From Escherichia virus fEg-Eco19: DNA of 45,805 nt. This document shows positions 129 to 43,806 of the stretch, in pieces. Location of the stretch: the sequence record NC_073314.1; one strand, 5' to 3'. Both the position numbers and the translations under genes were made by a program. Position 1 is the first letter of the stretch. Every line of letters starts with the position of its first letter. The notes under the pieces were generated by a model. It saw nothing but the letters and a program-made list of their open reading frames with translations. It made no database searches and had not been told where the DNA came from.

Positions 129-653
129 ATGAGTAACAAAAACGAAGTATTCGAGTACCTGATTGACCAGCTACGGCAGCAGGTAACTAGCAACCGGTGC
201 GAAGACCTGGCGCACGAGGTGTTGTCACTCAAGAATCAGTTACGTGATGCGTCGGCGCTGGTGGCTGAGTTACAGAAAGAACTTGATATCGCCAATAGCA
301 CCGTCGTTCGTTTGCGTAAAGAGATAGCTAAGTCTACCGGTGACATTGGAGAATACATCGATGCCACGGAGCAATCTGGTTGCCATAAGGAAGATACTCA
401 GTACAACGCCTGGAGGCCGCATTATGGTGCACGACAACCTGTTCCGGATGGGACTATGGTATTTATCCGGTATCGCAACGGGGAGGAGCCAAAACACAGT
501 GTAGCAGCGGAAAAGCGGTCGTGGATTTGGGATGGAACATACGCAGACATAGTGGAATACAAGATTGACACACAGGAATGTGAACATGACTATCGTTTGG
601 TTCTGTGGTGTAGCGACTTACAGCAGTGCTCTAAATGCGGGGAGATCAAATGA
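129..653 (+). CDS. hypothetical protein, N-terminal coiled coil, Cys/His-rich C-terminus
   Basis: 174-aa ORF with ATG start and GAGAGGAGAG RBS-like stretch upstream; no recognisable catalytic motif. Confidence 0.5.
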   Translation: MSNKNEVFEYLIDQLRQQVTSNRCEDLAHEVLSLKNQLRDASALVAELQKELDIANSTVVRLRKEIAKSTGDIGEYIDATEQSGCHKEDTQYNAWRPHYGARQPVPDGTMVFIRYRNGEEPKHSVAAEKRSWIWDGTYADIVEYKIDTQECEHDYRLVLWCSDLQQCSKCGEIK

Positions 654-3551: not shown

Positions 3552-3697
3552 AAATCACAGATACCGAAGCATTCAAAGATGCACAACTGATGGCACGCAT
3601 CGCCGTTAGCAACCTGAGCAACAGCATTCCGGCGGATGCGTTCTGGTTCGCTGCTATGCAGACACTGAAAGCAGCTTATGCAGGAGATAAGAAATGA
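3548..3697 (+). CDS. small hypothetical protein (49 aa)
   Basis: ATGA overlap with upstream stop; below the track size cutoff, translated by eye. Confidence 0.3.
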   Translation: MKITDTEAFKDAQLMARIAVSNLSNSIPADAFWFAAMQTLKAAYAGDKK

Positions 3698-3849: not shown

Positions 3850-4034
3850 CCGACCGTGAATACGAAAAGATGATGGTAGAGGCCGCAAACGGCAAAACGC
3901 AGAATGCTAAAGCTGAAATAGGGATACTAGATAGGCGGATAGAAGAACAGGCCCGATACCTTGACCGCCTTATGGAGCGCCGCCGTGAACTGATTAACCG
4001 CTTCAACCTGAACAAAGGTGACGCCAATGCCTAA
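3846..4034 (+). CDS. small hypothetical protein, coiled coil
   Basis: Internal ATG of track ORF 3831..4034 (MTDREYEKMM...). Confidence 0.4.
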   Translation: MTDREYEKMMVEAANGKTQNAKAEIGILDRRIEEQARYLDRLMERRRELINRFNLNKGDANA

Positions 4035-4266
4035 AATCACAATCGCATTACTAGAGCGCCGTATTCTGGTGCTTGAGTCAGAGAAACAGACGTTAGGTGG
4101 GCAACTGTCGATTAACGGTGGATTTCAACTGGAGGCGTTTAAGTTGCTACTTGAGCGCATGAAAGCGGACGAAAAGCCTTGCGCGCACGACTACTACATG
4201 CATTTAGTTGATGGGGTACATCGAGTCACATGCTTAAAATGTGGTAAAGCGTATGAAAGCGCCTGA
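4027..4266 (+). CDS. small hypothetical protein with C-terminal zinc-ribbon-like motif
   Basis: Internal ATG of track ORF 4018..4266; CxH...CxxC at C-terminus. Confidence 0.4.
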   Translation: MPKITIALLERRILVLESEKQTLGGQLSINGGFQLEAFKLLLERMKADEKPCAHDYYMHLVDGVHRVTCLKCGKAYESA

Positions 4267-34494: not shown

Positions 34495-37400
34495 TTACTT
34501 AGCATAGCGTTTCAACTCCGCACCTTCCGCTACAAGAGGGAAGCCTTCTGCCCACTCCGGCAACGCGCACATTAATTTCTCCAGTTCAGCCACCGTGTAC
34601 TCTGGGGTGTCCGGAGTTTCACACACCAGTTCATCGTGTACCGAAAGCACGATAGGATACCCACCACCCTCAACGTTAATCATCGCATATGCCAGTAAAT
34701 CACGGCACAGCGCCTGAACAATGTTTTCACAGGCTTTGCCGCCGTGTGTGTATAGAGTTGTCCATTGGCGGGTTAACTGGTTTTCACCCTGATACTTGAT
34801 TCGCACATTCGTGTTCATCCGTCCGTCTTCGTCTGTTTCCTTTGTCACGCTAACGCCGATTCCCGGATACGAGAGGATACGGCCCGACGGCAACTCCATA
34901 CACAACCACCAACCAGGAACCTTCCTGCCGGATGAATCAAATTCTACAGTACGCCATATGCGGATAGCCCTTTCCCCATTCCTGCGCAAGTGTGCCCCCG
35001 CCCAAAATTCACGACCGGGATTACGAACAGCAGCTAAAATTCCGTCTTTAAGGTCGCGCCAGAACGCTACTGTTTCCGGGTGTGACTCGCGCCACATACG
35101 CTTGATTGCGTCACATGTGCGCCACACTTTCTTATCAAGAATATACGATGGTCGGTCATCCTTTTCACCCGGATGCGGTGGTCGCTTGGCTTCCTGAATA
35201 CGCGCCCACTCATACCCACGCGCGGTAGCAGCCCAGATGTGGTCGGGGAAAGTCCCGTCCATTGTTTTTGCCATCTCAATAAGGTCAAGACCTAAGTTTT
35301 TAGCGAACGTAACGAATGCTCCGACGCCGCCTTCGTATCCGAGTCCAAGCTCGCAGTTATGCGCCACAAGAAAGCCAGAGTCGGAAGCGATAAGAAAACG
35401 GTTGCCGTCTTCCACATCAATCAGGTCGTACACTGGCTCGCAGTAGGTTAATTTCCCGTTCAAGCTCAGCAATGCGGGCAACGGCTGCATCATACTTTCG
35501 TTGAAGCTCAGGTATTCGCCGTCTGTTACGGCAGTTTTCAGAACGGCTGACAAACCGAATGTTTCCAGGTTCGTAGTTACCGTCTGTGTCGATTCTATCC
35601 ATTTCGAGGTTCGGGTCATCCCAGCCTTCCAGAGTTTGAACATATCTAAGAAAAGACCTTTTATCAGTCCTCCACTGGTCAAATACCGTGATGCCTCTTG
35701 CCCCATAGTTTTTATAACCCTTATCCCTGGGGCTTGTTGTCCGCGTGATTGCCGCGGACAGCCGGTTGAGTAATCGCGTTCTGTGCACATCATCCGGCAT
35801 TGCGTCTTCGTAGCAGAAATATTGTTTACGATATTTTTTTGTTGCTTCAAGGGCGCAACGGTTGCATTGAGTGGTTTTACCTGCTCTGACATTGTCATAA
35901 TAGACCCGCCCCGGCATCTCTCCGCAATCACATTGGACGAGTAGTTGTCTTTGGCCTTGTCGTTTTGGTAACTCGCGCAGGATAACCAGGCGTCCATACC
36001 TATCTCCAGGGCGCGGTCCATCATATATTTGTTTGAAACGAGTTGCTTTGCCTGCTTCCAGGAATGCGTCAAGATTTTGTGGTCTTCGGTCATTAGCACC
36101 CCGTCCACATTTATCACCGGTTTCCACCCCATAAGGTGCGCGCCTTTTGTATTCACCCATTTTTCGCCACTCCATACTTTATCTGTCGATGTGACCGCCA
36201 TAATATCCTTAAATCCGCCATAGGTCAAAACTTGGGTATGGCGGTGAAGGCAGGCTTTACCAATCTGGCGTAAGTCTTTGCGTTCTTTCTTAATGTAATC
36301 CGGCTCCATACCAAACATCTTACCCGCGGTTACGCAGTAAATATCCAACCCGGCGCGGAACGTATCGAGCGCGGTTTCTTCACCAGCCAGCCACGCAAGC
36401 CCTCGGCCTTCAACGTTAGAGTAATCGGCAACAACAAACTTATGTCCGGCTTCCGGTATGATGCAGCTACGAACGGTCGATGCCGTTAGCTTGGCCACAT
36501 CGAAACGGCGATGGGCGCGACCCTTAAGTAACGCCGAAATGCCTTTATCCAGCTCATCATCGTGATAGTAACCGCGTGCCAGGTTCTGCGGCTGGAAGCC
36601 TTTACCAGCCCATCGCAGAGTACGTTTTGCCCCACCGTACTGCAAGCAACCACGACGGCGGTCGTCGGACGAGCGGCCTAACAGCAATGGGTTATATTTC
36701 GTTGACGCGGTAGACGCGGCCCCGAGGCGCATTTCGATAATCGCGCGAGCGTCGTCTGGTAAATCATCATCCGAAAGCAGGTCATTAAGCGTCGACTTCT
36801 GCGCATTGTGGATGCGGTGCGCTGGGGCAAGCTCACGCAGAATCGGCAGAAAGTCCTTACCAGTAAGCGAGCCGCCGTATTTGCGTTGGGCTTCTTCCTG
36901 CAACCGTGCCTTGTGCTTCTCCACAGCTTCAATCGCGGCTTCTGCCAGGGCAACGTCAACCTTAAACCCGCGGTCGTTGATTAACTGGTCCAGTTCCAGT
37001 ACACGGTCTTCGAACTCGGAGTTACCCCACCGCGGCAGCTTATGGAAGACTTCACGCATTGCGGTGATGTCACTCACGGCGTATTTGATGAACAGTACCC
37101 ACTCGTCCGGGTGTGTTTCAGCGGTGTAGCGACGGATTTTGTAGTTCTTCGGCGTCGGTTTAGAGAAACGCTGAATCAGCGCCTTGCCTCGTTTGTCTTT
37201 CGCGTTGTCTGCTGACACGCCCAGCACTTCGCACAACGCATCGAGGGAACCCGGCAGCGCGTGACGAAACGCCCAAATCATCGTATCAATGGTGTTGCCT
37301 ACAGGAATATCAAAGTCCCAGCAGTGTTTCATGATGAGCCTATCGAACATTGAGCCGTTGTGCCATACCATCTTGATGCGACTGTTCGGCTTAACCAGAC

Positions 37401-37593
37401 GGCGTAGAGCGCGGTGTAAATCACCCGGCATGTCGCTGCCGTCGGTGCAATCCCATACCTGCACAGGCTCGTCGTCAAAGGCATAGGTACAGATGAGCAC
37501 TTCGGTTGACGGGTGTTCGGCGTAAGCGTAGGAGCCGACTTTCTTCAAATCGGCTTCGGAGAATGTTTCAAAGTCCAGGTATAAGTAGCTCAT
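34495..37593 (-). CDS. family A DNA polymerase with 3'-5' exonuclease domain, interrupted by an intein in motif B
   Basis: Exo motif LYLDFETFS, motif A VVADYSNVEGRGLAWLAGEE, motif B split as RQIGKA | intein | CELGLGYEGG; likely start is the internal ATG (MSYLYLDFET) with AAGGA RBS, track ORF starts at an upstream TTG. Confidence 0.85.
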   Translation of the reverse strand: MSYLYLDFETFSEADLKKVGSYAYAEHPSTEVLICTYAFDDEPVQVWDCTDGSDMPGDLHRALRRLVKPNSRIKMVWHNGSMFDRLIMKHCWDFDIPVGNTIDTMIWAFRHALPGSLDALCEVLGVSADNAKDKRGKALIQRFSKPTPKNYKIRRYTAETHPDEWVLFIKYAVSDITAMREVFHKLPRWGNSEFEDRVLELDQLINDRGFKVDVALAEAAIEAVEKHKARLQEEAQRKYGGSLTGKDFLPILRELAPAHRIHNAQKSTLNDLLSDDDLPDDARAIIEMRLGAASTASTKYNPLLLGRSSDDRRRGCLQYGGAKRTLRWAGKGFQPQNLARGYYHDDELDKGISALLKGRAHRRFDVAKLTASTVRSCIIPEAGHKFVVADYSNVEGRGLAWLAGEETALDTFRAGLDIYCVTAGKMFGMEPDYIKKERKDLRQIGKACLHRHTQVLTYGGFKDIMAVTSTDKVWSGEKWVNTKGAHLMGWKPVINVDGVLMTEDHKILTHSWKQAKQLVSNKYMMDRALEIGMDAWLSCASYQNDKAKDNYSSNVIAERCRGGSIMTMSEQVKPLNATVAPLKQQKNIVNNISATKTQCRMMCTERDYSTGCPRQSRGQQAPGIRVIKTMGQEASRYLTSGGLIKGLFLDMFKLWKAGMTRTSKWIESTQTVTTNLETFGLSAVLKTAVTDGEYLSFNESMMQPLPALLSLNGKLTYCEPVYDLIDVEDGNRFLIASDSGFLVAHNCELGLGYEGGVGAFVTFAKNLGLDLIEMAKTMDGTFPDHIWAATARGYEWARIQEAKRPPHPGEKDDRPSYILDKKVWRTCDAIKRMWRESHPETVAFWRDLKDGILAAVRNPGREFWAGAHLRRNGERAIRIWRTVEFDSSGRKVPGWWLCMELPSGRILSYPGIGVSVTKETDEDGRMNTNVRIKYQGENQLTRQWTTLYTHGGKACENIVQALCRDLLAYAMINVEGGGYPIVLSVHDELVCETPDTPEYTVAELEKLMCALPEWAEGFPLVAEGAELKRYAK
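35356..36252 (-). mobile_element. intein (299 codons) in DNA polymerase motif B
   Basis: Hint blocks in polymerase frame: N-terminal CLHRHT, block B LMTEDHKILT, blocks F/G VYDLIDVEDGNRFLIASDSGFLVAHN followed by Cys. Confidence 0.7.
35417..36175 (-). CDS. HNH endonuclease ORF inside the intein, in a different frame from the polymerase
   Basis: 252-codon ORF offset from polymerase frame (37647-36175=1472, not a multiple of 3); GYKNYGARGITVFDQW...EGW...DRIDTDGNYEPGNIRFVSRSENCRNRRR; shares EGW...DKD...YSP motif with 18559..19191 and 24270..24920. Confidence 0.55.
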   Translation of the reverse strand: MEWRKMGEYKRRAPYGVETGDKCGRGANDRRPQNLDAFLEAGKATRFKQIYDGPRPGDRYGRLVILRELPKRQGQRQLLVQCDCGEMPGRVYYDNVRAGKTTQCNRCALEATKKYRKQYFCYEDAMPDDVHRTRLLNRLSAAITRTTSPRDKGYKNYGARGITVFDQWRTDKRSFLRYVQTLEGWDDPNLEMDRIDTDGNYEPGNIRFVSRSENCRNRRRIPELQRKYDAAVARIAELEREINLLRASVRPD

Positions 37594-37745
37594 TTCTTTT
37601 TCCTTAAATCCAGTGCCTTCGTTTCGCTTAATCTTATTTTCATACAATCACGACAAATCCACACATGTCTGTACCCGGCGCGGTACTCATCCGCGTACCA
37701 CGGAAGTGGCTTCATGTATCGGTATACGTGCTTGCAGAAAAACAT
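37590..37745 (-). CDS. small Cys-rich protein (51 aa), coupled to polymerase start
   Basis: Translated by eye (MFFCKHVYRYMKPLPWYADEYRAGYRHVWICRDCMKIRL...); stop overlaps polymerase ATG as ATGA. Confidence 0.25.
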   Translation of the reverse strand: MFFCKHVYRYMKPLPWYADEYRAGYRHVWICRDCMKIRLSETKALDLRKKK

Positions 37746-37758
37746 TATTTTCGACCCT

Positions 37759-37785
37759 TAGTAAAAAGGCCCAATGAAGGGCCTC
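37759..37785 (-). terminator. rho-independent terminator (minus strand)
   Basis: Reverse complement: AGGCCC-ttcatt-GGGCCT followed by TTTTACT; just downstream of the SSB-like gene stop. Confidence 0.45.
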
Positions 37786-37804
37786 AGTTAAATTGGTTCA
37801 GATA

Positions 37805-38437
37805 TTAACGGCGACGACGTTCGCGGCGAGGTGCTTCATCTTTTTCATCGTCATCGTCTTCCAGGTCATTGACGCTTGCGGCGACTTTAGAACCACCAAA
37901 CGCTTTACCTTCGCCAACATATTTAATTGCCAGCAGGTTAACGCCTAGAACTTTATATTTCTGGCTGAACCAGATTTCAACGCTTACATTAGCTACGCAG
38001 CCACTGTAAACCTGTTCACCTTCAATCTGTTCGCCGTCTACGTTGAAGTCCTGCTCTACCTGAGTCTCTCCTTTTTTAGATGTTACAATCAGTGGCTGTT
38101 TCTGTGCCTTAGCTTTGAAGTAGAAGCCTTCCGGGAAGTCTTCAAACGGATTGTCGCGTTCAGCAATATCTTTAATTGCACATTTATCCATGTGCTTACC
38201 TTCGCCGTAGTTGGACTTCATCCACTTCTCGGCAGCGGCTGCACCTAACGCTTCTTCAACTACAGCGTAGACAGTGTCGTAGAGCGCGTCGATTTGCGCG
38301 TGGTCAGACGGCAGGATTATAGTCGCGCTGTACTGGCCTTTAGTGATGGAGCCATCATCGTTTTCACGGTCTTTTTCGCGTTCGAATACGTTAACCCAGG
38401 CAGTGTTTACTTTACGCAGATTCAGCTTAATACCCAT
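37805..38437 (-). CDS. putative single-stranded DNA-binding protein
   Basis: 210 aa with acidic DLEDDDDEKDE stretch near C-terminus, in replication module; assignment by analogy only. Confidence 0.35.
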   Translation of the reverse strand: MGIKLNLRKVNTAWVNVFEREKDRENDDGSITKGQYSATIILPSDHAQIDALYDTVYAVVEEALGAAAAEKWMKSNYGEGKHMDKCAIKDIAERDNPFEDFPEGFYFKAKAQKQPLIVTSKKGETQVEQDFNVDGEQIEGEQVYSGCVANVSVEIWFSQKYKVLGVNLLAIKYVGEGKAFGGSKVAASVNDLEDDDDEKDEAPRRERRRR

Positions 38438-38493
38438 ATCTCGATTCCTCAGTTTTTAGTTTACTCCGGGAAGCTGCCCGGCCAGTGATTAGA

Positions 38494-38522
38494 ACTATAA
38501 TAGCCAACTATTCAGGTGTCAA
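38494..38522 (-). promoter_or_regulatory. sigma70 promoter TTGACA-N17-TATAGT with AATAG-N4-CTATT palindrome in spacer
   Basis: Reverse complement reads TTGACAcctgaatagttggctatTATAGT. Confidence 0.5.
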
Positions 38523-38526
38523 CACT

Positions 38527-39768
38527 TTATTCCAAATCTTCTTCACTAACCTGATTCCACTCAGGCCGTTTGTCGTCTGCCGTTGTGATGCATGGGGCAC
38601 CTGGTTTACGTGTGATGAAGTCTTTCAGTTCTTCTTCCGGCACAACTTTAACCGCTTCGGTCGGCGTCATGAGCACTTCTTTAGTCAGCTTGTCGCCGTA
38701 GAGTTCTGTTACTTTCTCCGCGTCTTTCCACGCACGATTGCCCATCTTACCTTCAACCAGCTTGTACCCAGGAACTTTCTTACCGGAATGCAACGCGGCA
38801 GCCATAGCTTTCTCAACCTTGTCGATGTGCTGGCGCAACAACGGCAACTTCTCGTACTCAGCTACGAGTTCCTCCGGCGTAAGTTCCAGCGCAAAGTCGT
38901 CCTCCAGTTCTTCCGCCAGCACCGCGTTGACGGTTTTTGTACGCGCGGCGCACTGCTCTGAGAAACGGCACCATTGGCAACCGTCGACAGACGGCCTGAA
39001 GTCCGACGCTTTCAGGTTCTTTTTACCACGGAAATACGCATCAAGAGCTAACAGCGCCCGTTTCTGCGCAAACTTAGCGAACAGTTCCAGACCTTCAACC
39101 GAGATGTCCCACTCCGACGCGCCGCCAGCGTATGGCTGAAAGATGACCAGACGAACGGTTGTTATGTTATAACGTCTCTTGAGTCGGCGATAAACACCTA
39201 GAGCGTAGAGCATAAGCTGCTTGTTTTCTTTCGCTTCGACACGATGCCGTCCTGTTTTCAGGTCGCCGATGATAAGCATGTGCCCGTCAGTGTTAGCCAG
39301 TTCCTGAACGGCAACAAGGTCAGCGGTTCCGAACGTCTCAACGCCTTCATACCCAGGATGCAATACCTCAGTAAGATTGACGCGCATTTCCAGCTTGGCG
39401 TAAGTTGCTACATCGATAATCGGTTTGCAGTAGTCGGTGTACTTTCGCACCTGCTCAATCATGTCCGCCGTAATCAGTACCGCGCCTTTCATCGGGCTGA
39501 TTAGCGCCTTAATCTGGCCTTTACCCTCATCCAGCACGTAAGCGCCAACTTCACGCTCTAACGGCAACGCAGTGCCGCGGATATAAGCGTTGAGATGGAC
39601 TTCAGCTATGGTGTGGCACGCTGTCCCCGTAACGGCGGATTTACCCGACGTGTTAGGAATATCTTTTTCACAGGCCAGTGATGCGGCGCATGACAGCCAT
39701 TTTTTAGCACCTGACGGCGAAAGTAAGGCGTGAACATCGTTATTGCCGCCGCGTTCTTTTAGAATCAT
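38527..39768 (-). CDS. PD-(D/E)XK exonuclease, Cas4/RecB-like, with Cys cluster
   Basis: N-terminal SPSGAKKWLSC, GTADLV...IGDLKTG, QLMLYALG, and Cys cluster C-x...GCQWCRFSEQC. Confidence 0.65.
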   Translation of the reverse strand: MILKERGGNNDVHALLSPSGAKKWLSCAASLACEKDIPNTSGKSAVTGTACHTIAEVHLNAYIRGTALPLEREVGAYVLDEGKGQIKALISPMKGAVLITADMIEQVRKYTDYCKPIIDVATYAKLEMRVNLTEVLHPGYEGVETFGTADLVAVQELANTDGHMLIIGDLKTGRHRVEAKENKQLMLYALGVYRRLKRRYNITTVRLVIFQPYAGGASEWDISVEGLELFAKFAQKRALLALDAYFRGKKNLKASDFRPSVDGCQWCRFSEQCAARTKTVNAVLAEELEDDFALELTPEELVAEYEKLPLLRQHIDKVEKAMAAALHSGKKVPGYKLVEGKMGNRAWKDAEKVTELYGDKLTKEVLMTPTEAVKVVPEEELKDFITRKPGAPCITTADDKRPEWNQVSEEDLE

Positions 39769-40127
39769 CGTAAACTCTCCAAATACAAGTTTAATACCTG
39801 TAGCTGTTCTTCTGAGGGGGTGAAAGAATCATCGCGATGTAAGTCGCTTAACTGTTGCAACATTCCTGCGAACTGACGTCTTGCGTCAACAGCGGCCATG
39901 TGATGCTTTTCACTTTTGTATATTAATGTTTTCGGGTAATCCTCAAGCCTACCAGAAGATTTATTCACGCGGAGCGCCCGGGCTTCATGCGCAATGTGGA
40001 TGTACTTTTTGCCGTTTTGTAACACAGTAGCTACGCCGCTGTTCTTTCTGCGGTCACCGACGGTGTAAACCTTGTCACCGCTGCGCAAATTAAGCCACCA
40101 TTTATCCGTCATACCCTGCTCCCCCAC
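39765..40127 (-). CDS. hypothetical protein
   Basis: 120-aa ORF, GTG start, overlapping neighbours in operon. Confidence 0.4.
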   Translation of the reverse strand: MGEQGMTDKWWLNLRSGDKVYTVGDRRKNSGVATVLQNGKKYIHIAHEARALRVNKSSGRLEDYPKTLIYKSEKHHMAAVDARRQFAGMLQQLSDLHRDDSFTPSEEQLQVLNLYLESLR

Positions 40128-40381
40128 TGGTCAATTAAATGTCTGGTCTGGTGCTGGCAATGCATGGCCCATCCATACATCGACTCGAAGACATAAAAGT
40201 CAGGCTTGGCAAAAGTCGTGCGCTTAATCTGCGACACATGACGGCCTATATCTTTAGCCCGCGGTACTTTGCCTAAGTACGCCATCTCTTCCATCTGGTG
40301 CGCACCTGACGGCGCACGCAACAGCCACAACGCCTCTGTGTTATCCCGCCTGTCAACGGCGCGGTAGAGTTGGTAAATCAT
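40109..40381 (-). CDS. hypothetical protein
   Basis: 90-aa ORF in operon. Confidence 0.4.
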   Translation of the reverse strand: MIYQLYRAVDRRDNTEALWLLRAPSGAHQMEEMAYLGKVPRAKDIGRHVSQIKRTTFAKPDFYVFESMYGWAMHCQHQTRHLIDQWGSRV

Positions 40382-40391
40382 AATTACGACC

Positions 40392-40420
40392 CTCAGTTAA
40401 AGCGGCCCGAAGGCCGCGAG
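40392..40420 (-). terminator. hairpin terminator candidate (minus strand)
   Basis: Reverse complement: GCGGCC-ttcg-GGCCGC followed by TTTAACT; just downstream of the 40425..40925 stop. Confidence 0.4.
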
Positions 40421-40424
40421 ATAA

Positions 40425-40925
40425 TTATTCTTCTTCGAAATACTTGTTCTTGATTGCTGTCAGGCGTTCCAGGTACTCGGCCAGGTCTTCGTCTTTAATC
40501 GCGGCAATCTTCATCTTCTTACCGGTGAACTCTTCCAGCAGTTCATCAGAATCGTCGCACGCGGCATCGCTCGGACCTTCGTTAATTGCATCGTCGATAG
40601 CCTGAATCTGGTCACGAAGAGACTGGTAATCGACTTCTTCTTTCTCTTCTTCTGGTTCTGGCGTCGGCTCCTCTACTTTAGCTTTACGCGGCTTACGTTT
40701 TGGCTTCTCTTCTTCTGCCGGTTTAGTGTCGACGATGTCTTCACCTTCAACCGGGATTTCTTTTGTTTCTTCTTTAATACTTTCAGAGAACTGCTCAATT
40801 TTATGAGCGGCTACCGCGGCAGCCTCTTTGGCAGTAGTTGGCGCGAACTGTTTCGCACTATTCGCAGCAATCAGTTCATGTGCAACTACGAAACGTTCCA
40901 GTAATACTAAGAATTTCTCTAACAT
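40425..40925 (-). CDS. acidic coiled-coil protein, early gene
   Basis: 166 aa, Glu/Asp-rich with a central KPKRKPRKAK patch; driven by the strong promoter at ~40957-40985. Confidence 0.5.
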   Translation of the reverse strand: MLEKFLVLLERFVVAHELIAANSAKQFAPTTAKEAAAVAAHKIEQFSESIKEETKEIPVEGEDIVDTKPAEEEKPKRKPRKAKVEEPTPEPEEEKEEVDYQSLRDQIQAIDDAINEGPSDAACDDSDELLEEFTGKKMKIAAIKDEDLAEYLERLTAIKNKYFEEE

Positions 40926-41030
40926 TTGTTTCTCTCCTCTCGTTTGGTATGGGCTAACTATAATAGTGAACTATTCACATGTCAATGGGCTTTTCTAAAA
41001 TAATTAATATGGTACTATTCACATATCAAC
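40889..41030. repeat. direct repeat copy 1 (142 bp), divergent promoter/operator region
   Basis: Identical by eye to 41310..41451; contains the first 12 codons of ORF 40425..40925, TTGACA-N17-TATAGT (minus), an AATAG-N4-CTATT palindrome and a plus-strand TGgTACTAT extended -10. Confidence 0.7.
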
Positions 41031-41049
41031 TGACTAAGGAGTAATTAAA

Positions 41050-41265
41050 ATGCAACCATCTGAACTAGGCATTCGTGTAGAACAACGCCGTAAAGAACTC
41101 GGCATCTCCCAGCGCCGTCTGGCGGTGCTGACCGGGGTTTCCCAGGGCGCAATTAACCAGCTGGCACTTGGGGTAACCCAGGACGTCCGCCCGGCAACGC
41201 TGTTTAAACTGGCGGAAGTGCTGGAGGTAGACGCCAAGTGGCTGGCGCTAGGTGAAGGGGCTTAA
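41050..41265 (+). CDS. Cro/CI-type (XRE family) HTH transcriptional regulator
   Basis: 71 aa; ISQRRLAVLTGVSQGAINQLALG is a canonical XRE HTH; only plus-strand gene in a minus-strand module; GGAG RBS. Confidence 0.7.
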   Translation: MQPSELGIRVEQRRKELGISQRRLAVLTGVSQGAINQLALGVTQDVRPATLFKLAEVLEVDAKWLALGEGA

Positions 41266-41280
41266 TGCCCCTTTCTTTTT
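41256..41280 (+). terminator. rho-independent terminator
   Basis: AGGGGC-ttaat-GCCCCT followed by TTCTTTTT, overlapping the cro-like stop codon. Confidence 0.6.
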
Positions 41281-41309
41281 ACCTATTCCAAATCCTCCTC
41301 TTCCGATCT

Positions 41310-41451
41310 CGAAACGTTCCAGTAATACTAAGAATTTCTCTAACATTTGTTTCTCTCCTCTCGTTTGGTATGGGCTAACTATAATAGTGAACTATTCACA
41401 TGTCAATGGGCTTTTCTAAAATAATTAATATGGTACTATTCACATATCAAC
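41310..41451. repeat. direct repeat copy 2 (142 bp)
   Basis: Second copy of promoter/operator region plus a 12-codon 5' fragment of ORF 40425..40925; also contains the last three codons and stop of the primase gene. Confidence 0.7.
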
Positions 41452-43611
41452 AAATCCATCCCCTATTCTTTCGGGTATACGATATGTTCTCGGTACTACT
41501 TCGCCGTTAGCATCGCAACCAAGCATTAGTTCTCCATCTTTCAACATTTTATCAAGATGGGTGTTAGTCCCAGAGAAGTCACCGGAACGAGCCACTATCT
41601 GCTGCTGAGTAAAACCACGACCTGTATCATCTGACTGTTGCAGGTCTTCCAGTGCCGAAAGTATTGACTCCTTCCTTACCTCATCCCTGCCGCGTTTAAC
41701 TTCTTCCTTTACTTTTTGTTTACCTTCGTTAGTTAGCCCTTCTTCCCGCTCTTTCTCCTCGTCAGTTTTGAACGGCTCGAAGCCCCACGGCATCAGCACA
41801 AGAGCCTTGTGCGGTTCCGGCAGGTCGAGGTTTACGATTGTACCGTATTCCTCCGTGCTGCCCAGGAACTCAACCGCGCGGTATTCTTTCGGCGGCGGGG
41901 CTTCACGGAACTGTACAGACTCCAGCACCATGCCGACAGTTTTCTGTTGAGGTCCGTGTTTGAATTTCGAGTGGTATACATTTATCTGACGGTCGGTCGC
42001 GCGTTCGATTGTCAGTTCCACATCGACGCCCGCATACAGAGCGCCACTACCACGGGCTTTCTTTCCGCCCTTCGGCGTATGGTGAACAACCCCTACCGCG
42101 GCTTTAGTCGCGTCGCGTACTTCTTTCAGGATAGCGATAACTTTGCCCATACCGATTGCCGTTGATGAACTGTTCTCGTCGAACTTATCAATCGTCAGGG
42201 CCAGGGTCTGGTTAAGTGTGTCAAACGCAACCATGCCAATTGGTTCATCGCCCGCAGTTTCACGCATTATCTTAATCAGGCTTTTCAGTTTTCCGACTTC
42301 ACCCATATCGATGACGTGTACATAATCTTTACCCTCAACGCCGTATTTAGCCGCGAGTGCATCAATACGTGTACGTGTGGCTGCGCCACCTTCACCGTCG
42401 ATATAGAAATGGTGGCAACGCTGGGTATCCGCCCCCGCAAACCGGTATCCCGCCGCGCTAAGGTACATCATCCCCAGCGTATAGAACGATTTGTACGTGC
42501 CCGATTCCCCGACAATATCCCATATGCAATCCGACGGCATGTACCCTTCAACGACGAAATCAGCCTTTACCGGTTCCGGTAGCTCGTCCTCCTCTGAGTC
42601 ATCCTCGTCTTCCAGGTCGTCCAGGCTGCAAGTTACAGGATCCTCGTTCTCTGTGCGGTGTAGTTCTTCAATCTCTTCATCCGGTAAATCAGGCAAAGCA
42701 GCACGAATGCTGTTAATGCTAATAGGTTGCTTGTCTACGTTAAGCTCGTCCGGAAGGCCGCACATACGCAGGGCCAAATGTTGTCGGCGGTTAAGCTCGG
42801 TGCAGGCACCGTTGTTCGTATGCTGGCACACGAAGCGTACTTCTTTACCGTCAAGCATGATGCTGGTGGAGCCTTTGCCAGTGTGTAGATGTTCGTTAGG
42901 ACATGGCACTTCATACCCGCGCCCGGAAGATAGAGCGTCAAGACCAAGTTCCGCTTCGCAGAAATGCGCTATATCGGCGTTAAGCCCATGCTCATCTGCA
43001 GCAAGTGTCTTAGCTTCACGTTTACGCAACCCCATCTCTTCGGCTTTCTTGATGTACCGCTCTGCACTGATAACACGCCCTTCTGTGACCGTTATCTTCG
43101 ACTCTTTGTGCGGCAGGTAGATAAGGCGGTTACCGTCTTCTGTGCAGTGGTCGCGCAGCGCTTCGTCTATTCCTAACTCTGCGCAAATAGCCCGTTGCAC
43201 CATCCACGCGTCGTTAGATTTGAACGGAGTGCGAGCCGGAACCAGAACGCGGAAGGCGTAATCCCCGTTTTTACACGTGTGCTGGTGCGACGCCGTTGTA
43301 TGCAGAATATTGAAGAACGGTGCGTTCTTGAATTTGCGGGTAAGGTCGCGGTACTGAGTACGGTTTAGATGGTCGAAGTCGAACTTAACCACACTATCTT
43401 CCAGAATCGCGTTCTTACGGCGACCACCAACAGGCGCAATTGCTTTCTGCTTAATCTTGGCCGCGTCGTACTCTTCCTTAGTCCACGACGGGTCTACAGA
43501 CAAACGCTTCGATGTATCGCAGACATACTCTACGAACTGCTCCAGCGGCATTTCACGAGCTACAGGGTTTTTATCGAACGTGTTGCGCAGCGTTGCAAAA
43601 ACAATATTCAT
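41440..43611 (-). CDS. primase-helicase (zinc-binding N-terminal region, P-loop C-terminal domain)
   Basis: Cys/His cluster CPNEHLHTGKGS...FVCQHTNNGAC; P-loop VGESGTYKSF; 723 aa in replication module. Confidence 0.55.
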   Translation of the reverse strand: MNIVFATLRNTFDKNPVAREMPLEQFVEYVCDTSKRLSVDPSWTKEEYDAAKIKQKAIAPVGGRRKNAILEDSVVKFDFDHLNRTQYRDLTRKFKNAPFFNILHTTASHQHTCKNGDYAFRVLVPARTPFKSNDAWMVQRAICAELGIDEALRDHCTEDGNRLIYLPHKESKITVTEGRVISAERYIKKAEEMGLRKREAKTLAADEHGLNADIAHFCEAELGLDALSSGRGYEVPCPNEHLHTGKGSTSIMLDGKEVRFVCQHTNNGACTELNRRQHLALRMCGLPDELNVDKQPISINSIRAALPDLPDEEIEELHRTENEDPVTCSLDDLEDEDDSEEDELPEPVKADFVVEGYMPSDCIWDIVGESGTYKSFYTLGMMYLSAAGYRFAGADTQRCHHFYIDGEGGAATRTRIDALAAKYGVEGKDYVHVIDMGEVGKLKSLIKIMRETAGDEPIGMVAFDTLNQTLALTIDKFDENSSSTAIGMGKVIAILKEVRDATKAAVGVVHHTPKGGKKARGSGALYAGVDVELTIERATDRQINVYHSKFKHGPQQKTVGMVLESVQFREAPPPKEYRAVEFLGSTEEYGTIVNLDLPEPHKALVLMPWGFEPFKTDEEKEREEGLTNEGKQKVKEEVKRGRDEVRKESILSALEDLQQSDDTGRGFTQQQIVARSGDFSGTNTHLDKMLKDGELMLGCDANGEVVPRTYRIPERIGDGFVDM

Positions 43612-43734
43612 TTCTTTTTCTCCGCACGTTCTAAGGCTTCCTGCATACGGCGCATTGCGCGGTTCATCTTTACCGGTGCGAAGAAGTCAGCGCCGTGTTT
43701 CTGACGGCGTAGCTGTGGAACTATTAACTTCGTC
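43609..43734 (-). CDS. small basic protein (41 aa), coupled to primase start
   Basis: Translated by eye; stop overlaps primase ATG as ATGA. Confidence 0.25.
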
Positions 43735-43774
43735 ATTGTATAATCCTTGTGCTTACTTTGATGATTTGTGCTTT

Positions 43775-43806
43775 GCCCCGACGTTCTTGCGTTGGGGTTT
43801 CTTTTT
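43775..43806 (+). terminator. plus-strand intrinsic terminator inside a minus-strand operon
   Basis: GCCCCGACG-ttcttg-CGTTGGGG followed by TTTCTTTTT on the plus strand. Confidence 0.35.

Follow-up and report, generated by a model that had tools for sequence, protein, structure and literature searches.

Two small open reading frames (ORFs), smORF1 and smORF2, were studied in a 45,805-nucleotide (nt) stretch of DNA from Escherichia virus fEg-Eco19 (NC_073314.1), the whole of which is referred to below as the window. Both lie on the minus strand, which carries the genes of ~31–45 kb, including those for a single-stranded DNA-binding protein (SSB), a DNA polymerase and a helicase-primase, and each ends on the start codon of a large replication gene (Table 1). 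A megablast search with the region returned over 100 Guernseyvirinae siphophages (Kagunavirus, Jerseyvirus) of Escherichia and Salmonella at 85–96% identity, and by this similarity the window represents a Kagunavirus-like (Guernseyvirinae) coliphage.

The first ORF, smORF1, consists of 51 codons and a TGA and encodes MFFCKHVYRYMKPLPWYADEYRAGYRHVWICRDCMKIRLSETKALDLRKKK. Its TGA (37592..37590) shares three bases with the polymerase ATG (37593..37591), giving the sequence ATGA at 37593..37590. The second, smORF2, has 42 codons and a TGA and encodes MTKLIVPQLRRQKHGADFFAPVKMNRAMRRMQEALERAEKKK; its TGA (43610..43608) overlaps the helicase-primase ATG (43611..43609) in the same way, with ATGA at 43611..43608. 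A first-pass annotation of the window had noticed both ORFs by eye, below the cutoff of its ORF track. The coordinates of smORF1, its 51 codons and its overlap with the polymerase start were confirmed. For smORF2 the ATGA overlap with the primase start also stands, but the extent given there (43609..43734, 41 codons) is 1–2 nt and one codon off. The two ORFs are not new: they are represented in the PHROG families described below, and GenBank records of relatives list identical proteins as hypothetical, among them Bas72_0043 and Bas72_0052.

Table 1. Positions of the two small genes, the adjoining replication genes and their initiation signals in the window (SD, Shine-Dalgarno; CDS, coding sequence; aa, amino acids)
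Feature	Positions	Strand	Basis
Family-A DNA polymerase, 1032 aa	34495..37593	-	Pfam DNA_pol_A and 3'-5' exonuclease domains
299-aa intein in polymerase (residues 448–746)	35356..36252	-	alignment to 726-aa Bas72 polymerase
smORF1, 51-aa CDS, putative zinc-binding mini-protein	37590..37745	-	pN/pS, family alignment, profile search, annotation in relatives
Polymerase's own SD AAGGA, in last smORF1 codons (…L R K K K stop)	37601..37605	-	duplex -6.1 kcal/mol
smORF1 SD AAGGG, 9 nt 5' of ATG	37755..37759	-	anti-SD duplex -4.9 kcal/mol
GC-rich hairpin and U-run (AGGCCC-UUCAUU-GGGCCU-UUUU), between SSB stop and smORF1	37762..37785	-	sequence, fold
Enc34/gp2.5-type SSB	37805..38437	-	domain search
Helicase-primase (replicative), 723 aa	41440..43611	-	Pfam AAA_25
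smORF2, 42-aa basic CDS (phrog_23061)	43608..43736	-	ORF, PHROG profile match, variation
Helicase-primase's own SD GGAG, in last smORF2 codons (…A E K K K stop)	43620..43623	-	duplex -6.6 kcal/mol
smORF2 SD AAGGA, 7 nt 5' of ATG	43744..43748	-	anti-SD duplex -5.2 kcal/mol

smORF1 and its protein family

The variation of smORF1 among 13 relatives is that of a coding sequence. The ratio of nonsynonymous to synonymous polymorphism (pN/pS) is 0.11 in frame and 1.3 and 2.2 in the other two frames, and in the same relatives the C-terminus of SSB and the N-terminus of the polymerase gave reference values of 0.11 and 0.04. Purifying selection acts on the whole length of the smORF1 peptide. The start codon is M1. 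In fFiEco03 the gene has been annotated from the internal M11, but this codon is without an SD (+0.1 kcal/mol) and its use would remove C4 and H6, two of the four residues of the ligand pattern C4-x-H6...C31-x-x-C34. The first-pass annotation had described a zinc-ribbon-like CxxC...CxxC spacing; no such spacing is present, and the actual arrangement is one CxH (C4-K-H6) and one CxxC (C31-R-D-C34).

Translated searches (tblastn) detected smORF1 in 34 phage records at 88–100% amino acid identity. Flyfo siphovirus and Klebsiella phage VLCpiS13d (gp77) carry relatives at 40–50% identity (E-values of 1e-4 and 6e-4, respectively), and other distant relatives are found in Drexlerviridae (IMM-001, Opt-79), a Kuravirus (Paul gp001) and a jumbo Erwinia phage. 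Homologues in unrelated phages show 30–40% identity. A word-indexed protein search returned near-identical proteins only, while a profile built from seven sequences gave 247 matches at E<=1e-3 among 1.84 billion representative proteins; most of the 150 matches listed are 50–160 aa long and match over their full length. In an alignment of 55 family sequences, H6 and C31 never vary, and at least 90% keep C4 and C34. The family core can be written C-x-H-x-Y-x-x-x-R…(GDE/WYxDE)…G-x-R-S-x-W-x-C-x-x-C-G-K, and the family ligand pattern, C-x(1,2)-H ... C-x-x-C, is present in smORF1.

The closest described group is phrog_7696 (function unknown), which was matched by 41 of the 55 family members; a few match phrog_24253, labelled 'zinc-finger domain protein'. 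Together with the related PHROGs 4188 and 3036 these are phage proteins of 50–90 aa that share C-x-H…(G/W)(D/Y)E…R-x-x-W-x-C-x-x-C-G-K with smORF1. Within this group smORF1 is a divergent branch, with WYADEY in place of GDEIN and CMK in place of CGK, and on its own it falls below the usual thresholds (a weak match to phrog_7696, E 0.0017). No Pfam or NCBIfam model was found for the family (smORF1 and the 55 relatives were searched in Pfam). Known families considered for smORF1 in Pfam, NCBIfam and PDB sequence searches gave noise at the level of the knuckle and were set aside.

An AlphaFold2 model of smORF1, made from the deep alignment, has three beta-strands and a predicted local distance difference test score (pLDDT) of 74.6. 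Its best Foldseek matches are the zinc ribbons NrdR, Rpb9 and ZifS (E 2.6–10, probability <=0.28), none of them significant, and a PDB search with the family profile matched only the CxxCGK knuckle. Zinc ribbon and knuckle mini-domains (the N-terminal ribbon of NrdR, the Rpb9/TFIIS type, eL43, rubredoxin) resemble smORF1, as modelled, in having ligand pairs ~25 residues apart that flank a small beta-sheet, and its CxxC(G)K knuckle resembles those of C2H2 zinc fingers, eL43 and rubredoxin, at weak E-values only. They differ in that the first pair of a zinc ribbon is CxxC, whereas smORF1 has C-x-H. The product of smORF1 is very probably a metal-binding mini-protein, as predicted from its conserved residues, and the ligands most likely form a putative Cys3His zinc site, which is well supported by conservation.

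A search for paralogues in the window with a hidden Markov model (HMM) of the 55-sequence alignment gave smORF1 as the sole significant match. Two further ORFs, 129..653 (+) and 4018..4266 (+), have C-termini of the form C-x-H-D-Y…C-x-K-C-G-(E/K), namely CEHDYRLVLWCSDLQQCSKCGEIK and CAHDYYMHLVDGVHRVTCLKCGKAYESA. This motif resembles the smORF1 ligands with a shorter spacer, and its HMM match is not significant (E 0.34).

Members of the smORF1 family are found in many settings. Some belong to clusters of small early genes or to a lambdoid nin region, and others immediately precede a T7-type RNA polymerase, have a dUTPase gene close by or occupy a genome end. Judging from these neighbourhoods, the family is independent of the polymerase. 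Within the Guernseyvirinae smORF1 is optional by the record counts, as the polymerase region is matched by 442 records and smORF1 (at >=80% identity) is present in only 34. Exactly 153 nt, running from the start codon of smORF1 up to that of the polymerase, are missing from Salmonella phage SETP3 and from a metagenomic contig, L029. In both, the polymerase comes directly after the same CTAAGGGTCGAAAATA initiation sequence. The junction in L029 reads …TTTTTACTAAGGGTCGAAAATA-ATGAGTTAC…, so that the polymerase of this contig would use the initiation region that smORF1 uses in the window. The polymerase DNA of the cassette-less phages is 71–91% identical, and where smORF1 is present it supplies a replacement polymerase SD (AAGGA, -6.1 kcal/mol) in its own last codons. 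By this comparison smORF1 is an exact 153-nt start-codon cassette. Natural losses are also seen. Salmonella phage Jersey has kept the cassette, with a TAG at codon 20 and five further amino acid changes, and its copy looks decayed; because of the nonsense codon, smORF1 is not annotated in the RefSeq entry of Jersey. In a metagenomic variant (P0002) smORF1 is frameshifted.

smORF2 and the linked primase allele

The product of smORF2 matches phrog_23061 over its full length (42/42 positions, E 6.8e-34). It is a member of this orphan family, from which no difference was found, and the family is restricted to Kagunavirus-type phages. With tblastn, smORF2 was detected in 41 records, all Kagunavirus, and in a handful of metagenomic variants. 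In the unbiased GenBank set, variable sites fall at first, second and third codon positions 1, 1 and 7 times. Two length variants preserve the frame: P0153 has a one-codon deletion and P0154 a three-codon duplication, the latter also keeping the 4-nt overlap. smORF2 is probably coding and under selection in most lineages, as this pattern of substitutions and indels suggests.

The presence of smORF2 follows the gene downstream of it. It always accompanies one helicase-primase allele, and phages with the other allele (Jersey, fPoEco01) have no small ORF at that place. The helicase-primase is a mosaic, with the first ~350 residues only ~20–25% identical to those of fPoEco01 and Jersey and the helicase part (~350–700) ~90% identical. 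The closest relatives of its primase N-domain are Dhillonvirus primases, at ~38% identity, and these are likewise without smORF2. Disrupted copies exist among phages with smORF2. In Schulenburg codon 36 is changed from GAA to TAA, and in Snoke and Shashou 1 nt is deleted after codon 25, the annotated protein of Sciku being the same truncated sequence. In Schulenburg, Snoke and Shashou the stop is thus displaced ~17–22 nt upstream of the primase ATG. From these genomes, smORF2 and its stop-start overlap are dispensable.

A nucleotide-conserved island within smORF2 was considered and rejected. The mean pairwise divergence was 1.4%, compared with 6.2% at the N-terminus of the primase (third positions, p=1e-4), but this signal is biased because nine of the loci had been found through an exact match to a 29-mer of smORF2 itself. 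In the unbiased set the stretch without variation corresponds to the initiation region of the primase.

At 43770..43800 a hairpin, CCCCAACG…CGUCGGGG, follows a 96-aa gene. It has a T-run on the plus strand only, where no gene ends, and fBC-Eco01 annotates terminators on both strands at this place.

Junctions, initiation signals and neighbouring genes

Four-base ATGA/GTGA overlaps occur at at least 19 of 77 crudely called same-strand junctions and are the commonest junction type in the window. The 4-nt overlap is the default junction style of this genome and not a control specific to replication. The four starts considered here have SD-like motifs of -4.9 to -6.6 kcal/mol, roughly in the best fifth of 633 minus-strand ATGs, and the strongest of them are those of the polymerase and the primase. 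Around the primase start, ~50 nt are invariant among relatives. Both small ORFs terminate in …(A/G)GGA(A/G)AAAAGAAATGA, and the motif GGAGAnAAGAAATGA occurs four times in the window against 0.19 expected. The shared motif at the ends of small ORFs indicates that their Lys-rich tails are the footprint of the SD, A-rich spacer and ATG of the next gene. The other two copies of GGAGAnAAGAAATGA are on the plus strand, at 3683 and 3835. This part of the genome (3363..4034, plus strand) holds four small ORFs (62, 49, 51 and ~62 aa) chained by ATGA overlaps, and the upstream products at the two GGAGAnAAGAAATGA junctions have DKK and EKK at their C-termini.

Neither junction showed a significantly stable RNA structure (z of -0.24 for the primase and -1.78 for the polymerase), and the polymerase value owes mostly to the hairpin after SSB. 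This hairpin was not picked out by a terminator scan. SETP3 has a hairpin at the equivalent place that differs in sequence (GGCGGC-UUCG-GUCGCC-UUUU). The hairpin of the window is probably a partial terminator or an RNA-stabilising hairpin, and the presence of such elements between SSB and polymerase in both phages suggests a conserved attenuator or stabiliser.

Strict termination-reinitiation coupling has been reported for 13 of 14 tested overlapping gene pairs (Huber et al. 2019, PMC6728339). Pairs of this kind, of the trpB-trpA type, resemble the present ones in co-directionality, in the 4-nt overlap and in having the downstream SD inside the upstream CDS, and by this analogy some coupling is likely at both ATGAs, as a generic property rather than a special device. 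They differ in that the polymerase and primase genes here do not depend on the upstream ORF, as is shown by the natural variants in which it is missing or its stop is uncoupled. Strict dependence of either enzyme on the ORF before it is therefore disfavoured, if indirectly, by these relatives and by the enzymes' own SDs.

The polymerase itself has an insert that begins CLHRH… and ends …VAHN followed by Cys, which is the canonical intein signature, and the Bas72 polymerase is without it. In the relative BPS11T2 the annotation reads 'intein-containing DNA polymerase precursor'. Pfam returned no match for 503 aa of the polymerase that include the 299-aa insert, so the intein assignment rests on the alignment and the terminal motifs. 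Three identical sigma-70-like promoters (TTGACA-17-TATAGT, 11/12 matches) are found on the minus strand at 38494..38522, 40957..40985 and 41378..41406. A distance of 421 nt separates the last two, and both have an identical TTCACA-16-TAAAAT partner on the plus strand (40974..41001 and 41395..41422), which indicates that a duplicated divergent-promoter block flanks a 166-aa gene.

Interpretation and significance

The first-pass annotation had offered two views of these ORFs, as real small proteins or as purely upstream coupling ORFs that set the translation levels of the replication enzymes. The first of these is borne out by the purifying selection and distant homologues of smORF1 and by the PHROG match, third-position substitutions and in-frame indels of smORF2. 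Conservation of the frames in related phages, which it had named as a check, was found as well: smORF1 has kept its frame and its ligands, and smORF2 has kept its frame in most lineages. We consider it likely that both ORFs are real, translated but dispensable accessory genes that sit as self-contained cassettes in front of large replication genes.

On this reading, transcripts carrying SSB, smORF1 and the polymerase would start at the sigma-70-like promoter at 38522..38494 and read through the hairpin after SSB, and separate transcripts would carry the 96-aa gene, smORF2 and the primase. Translation of each small ORF would begin from the SD that precedes it and finish on the ATG of the following gene, while its last four or five codons (…RKKK / …EKKK) would double as the downstream initiation region, comprising SD, A-rich spacer and ATG. 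Two routes of initiation would then be open to the polymerase and helicase-primase: the terminating ribosome could reinitiate, or a new ribosome could be recruited by their own strong SDs. The smORF1 product, one of a large set of early or accessory phage proteins, would be a protein of ~6 kDa with the three strands of the model, holding one zinc ion through C4, H6, C31 and C34, and it may bind a host or phage macromolecule rather than act through the polymerase. The smORF2 product would be a basic peptide that may work with the linked primase domain, yet can be lost.

Several observations weigh against this interpretation. The model of smORF1 is only moderately confident, and Foldseek gave no significant match in the PDB (E>2). 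The coding status of smORF2 rests on few substitutions, no homologues were found beyond close relatives (tblastn; the word-indexed protein search gave near-identical proteins only), and the gene is decaying in one lineage. In the unbiased GenBank set, third positions vary in 7 of 42 smORF2 codons but in 35 of 100 adjacent primase codons (p=0.04). Nucleotide-level constraint thus coexists with coding constraint in smORF2, and its simplest cause is the embedded primase initiation region. Some of the disrupted copies of smORF1 and smORF2 could also be sequencing errors.

A more specific version, which is speculative and rather unlikely as a whole, would see the smORF1 family as phage zinc-finger mini-proteins that spread as start-codon cassettes, seizing the ribosome-binding site of an essential gene and supplying a new one in their last codons. 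Such proteins might all act on one target in the host or phage, for instance an anti-defence target or a factor associated with nucleic acid or polymerase, and smORF2 would be a co-evolving partner of its primase-domain allele.

In phage Mu, translation of the gene mom is activated by Com, a small zinc-finger protein whose own gene lies upstream of mom and overlaps it. smORF1 is like Com in being a small putative zinc-finger protein placed directly upstream of, and overlapping, a larger gene, and it might by analogy regulate polymerase translation or transcription, with smORF2, strictly linked to one primase N-domain allele, as a dedicated cofactor or regulator of that allele. This is improbable. 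Members of the smORF1 family adjoin many different genes that are not polymerases, and the family is not tied to one downstream gene. There is no sequence or Pfam relation to Com (no Com-type match for smORF1 or the 55 relatives), and the junctions have no significantly stable structure (z -1.8 and -0.2), with no occluding RNA hairpin. The polymerases of the cassette-less phages, related at 71–91% DNA identity, need no such factor, and the Dhillonvirus primases have the same type of domain without smORF2.

In another alternative the peptides are irrelevant and the ORFs serve only as leaders, whose translation would set enzyme levels by bringing ribosomes to the polymerase and primase starts or by unfolding these sites. 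The ATGA at both junctions, the ~50 invariant nt round the primase start, the smORF2 indels that keep the frame (and, in the duplication variant, the stop-start overlap) and the usually tight coupling of overlapping gene pairs (PMC6728339) are all in keeping with this idea. Yet it is quite improbable, being contradicted by selection on the peptides (a pN/pS of 0.11 for smORF1, mainly third-position substitutions for smORF2) and by smORF1 homologues with conserved metal ligands in unrelated contexts independent of any polymerase. Relatives exist without each ORF (SETP3 and L029 for smORF1, Jersey and fPoEco01 for smORF2), Jersey, Schulenburg, Snoke and Shashou have lost the coupling of the stop through nonsense or frameshift mutations, and the polymerase and primase have strong SDs of their own. 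A dedicated leader ORF would always be present with the gene it regulates, and its peptide would be free to vary or be kept only at a stalling motif; neither smORF1 nor smORF2 behaves in this way.

It is very improbable that the two are untranslated chance ORFs in intergenic spacers, although their bare presence is not beyond chance. A frame stays open for 42–51 codons with a probability of (61/64)^n, or ~0.09–0.13, and an A follows the ATG in about one case in four (~1/4), so that by our estimate roughly one or two ORFs of such length and ATGA ending are expected in a 60-gene phage; the lack of annotation of smORF1 in RefSeq Jersey would also fit. The two ORFs rise above chance because of the comparative evidence, not their mere presence: frame-specific purifying selection, SDs, PHROG families, distant homologues and many GenBank annotations speak against this explanation, and for smORF1 it is refuted by the family relationships.

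It is extremely improbable that programmed -1 frameshifting, at the G AAA AAG that lies 3 nt ahead of each stop, fuses the small ORF to the enzyme and gives an N-terminally extended polymerase or primase: GAAAAAGAAATGA is present in both junctions with the downstream gene in the -1 frame, but G AAA AAG departs from the canonical X XXY YYZ pattern, the motif is the common SD-spacer-ATG junction of the phage, no stable structure is seen when the primase junction is folded to only ~30 nt past the site (z -0.24), smORF2 terminates before the site is reached in the viable phages Schulenburg, Snoke and Shashou, and the polymerases of L029 and SETP3 and the Dhillonvirus primases begin at the same methionine with no extension. 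The hypothetical fusion …RAEKK-EMNI (43608..43625, minus strand) does resemble …RAEKKDINV near the N-terminus of the fPoEco01 primase (6/9 residues identical, with E 0.002 for a very small search space), but Jersey has REERADINV, so that the match is not kept within the other allele and is probably a coincidence. The idea that smORF2 is a split-off primase N-terminus was likewise dropped, given only this 9-residue match, unextended Dhillonvirus primases and viable variants with upstream stops.

For annotation, both ORFs should be called as genes, smORF1 from M1. For the latter, a suitable label is 'putative zinc-binding protein'. Its family is widespread among phages, has no Pfam model and is a reasonable target for small-protein screens. 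The 153-nt presence/absence polymorphism and the natural knock-outs provide ready isogenic comparisons for the share of the 4-nt overlap in the expression of essential enzymes. The current view of phage replication control is unchanged by these results. The two ORFs appear to be ordinary small accessory genes in ordinary operon packing. What is left of mild interest is that smORF1 would be an exact start-codon cassette drawn from a sizeable, uncharacterised family of putative zinc-finger mini-proteins.

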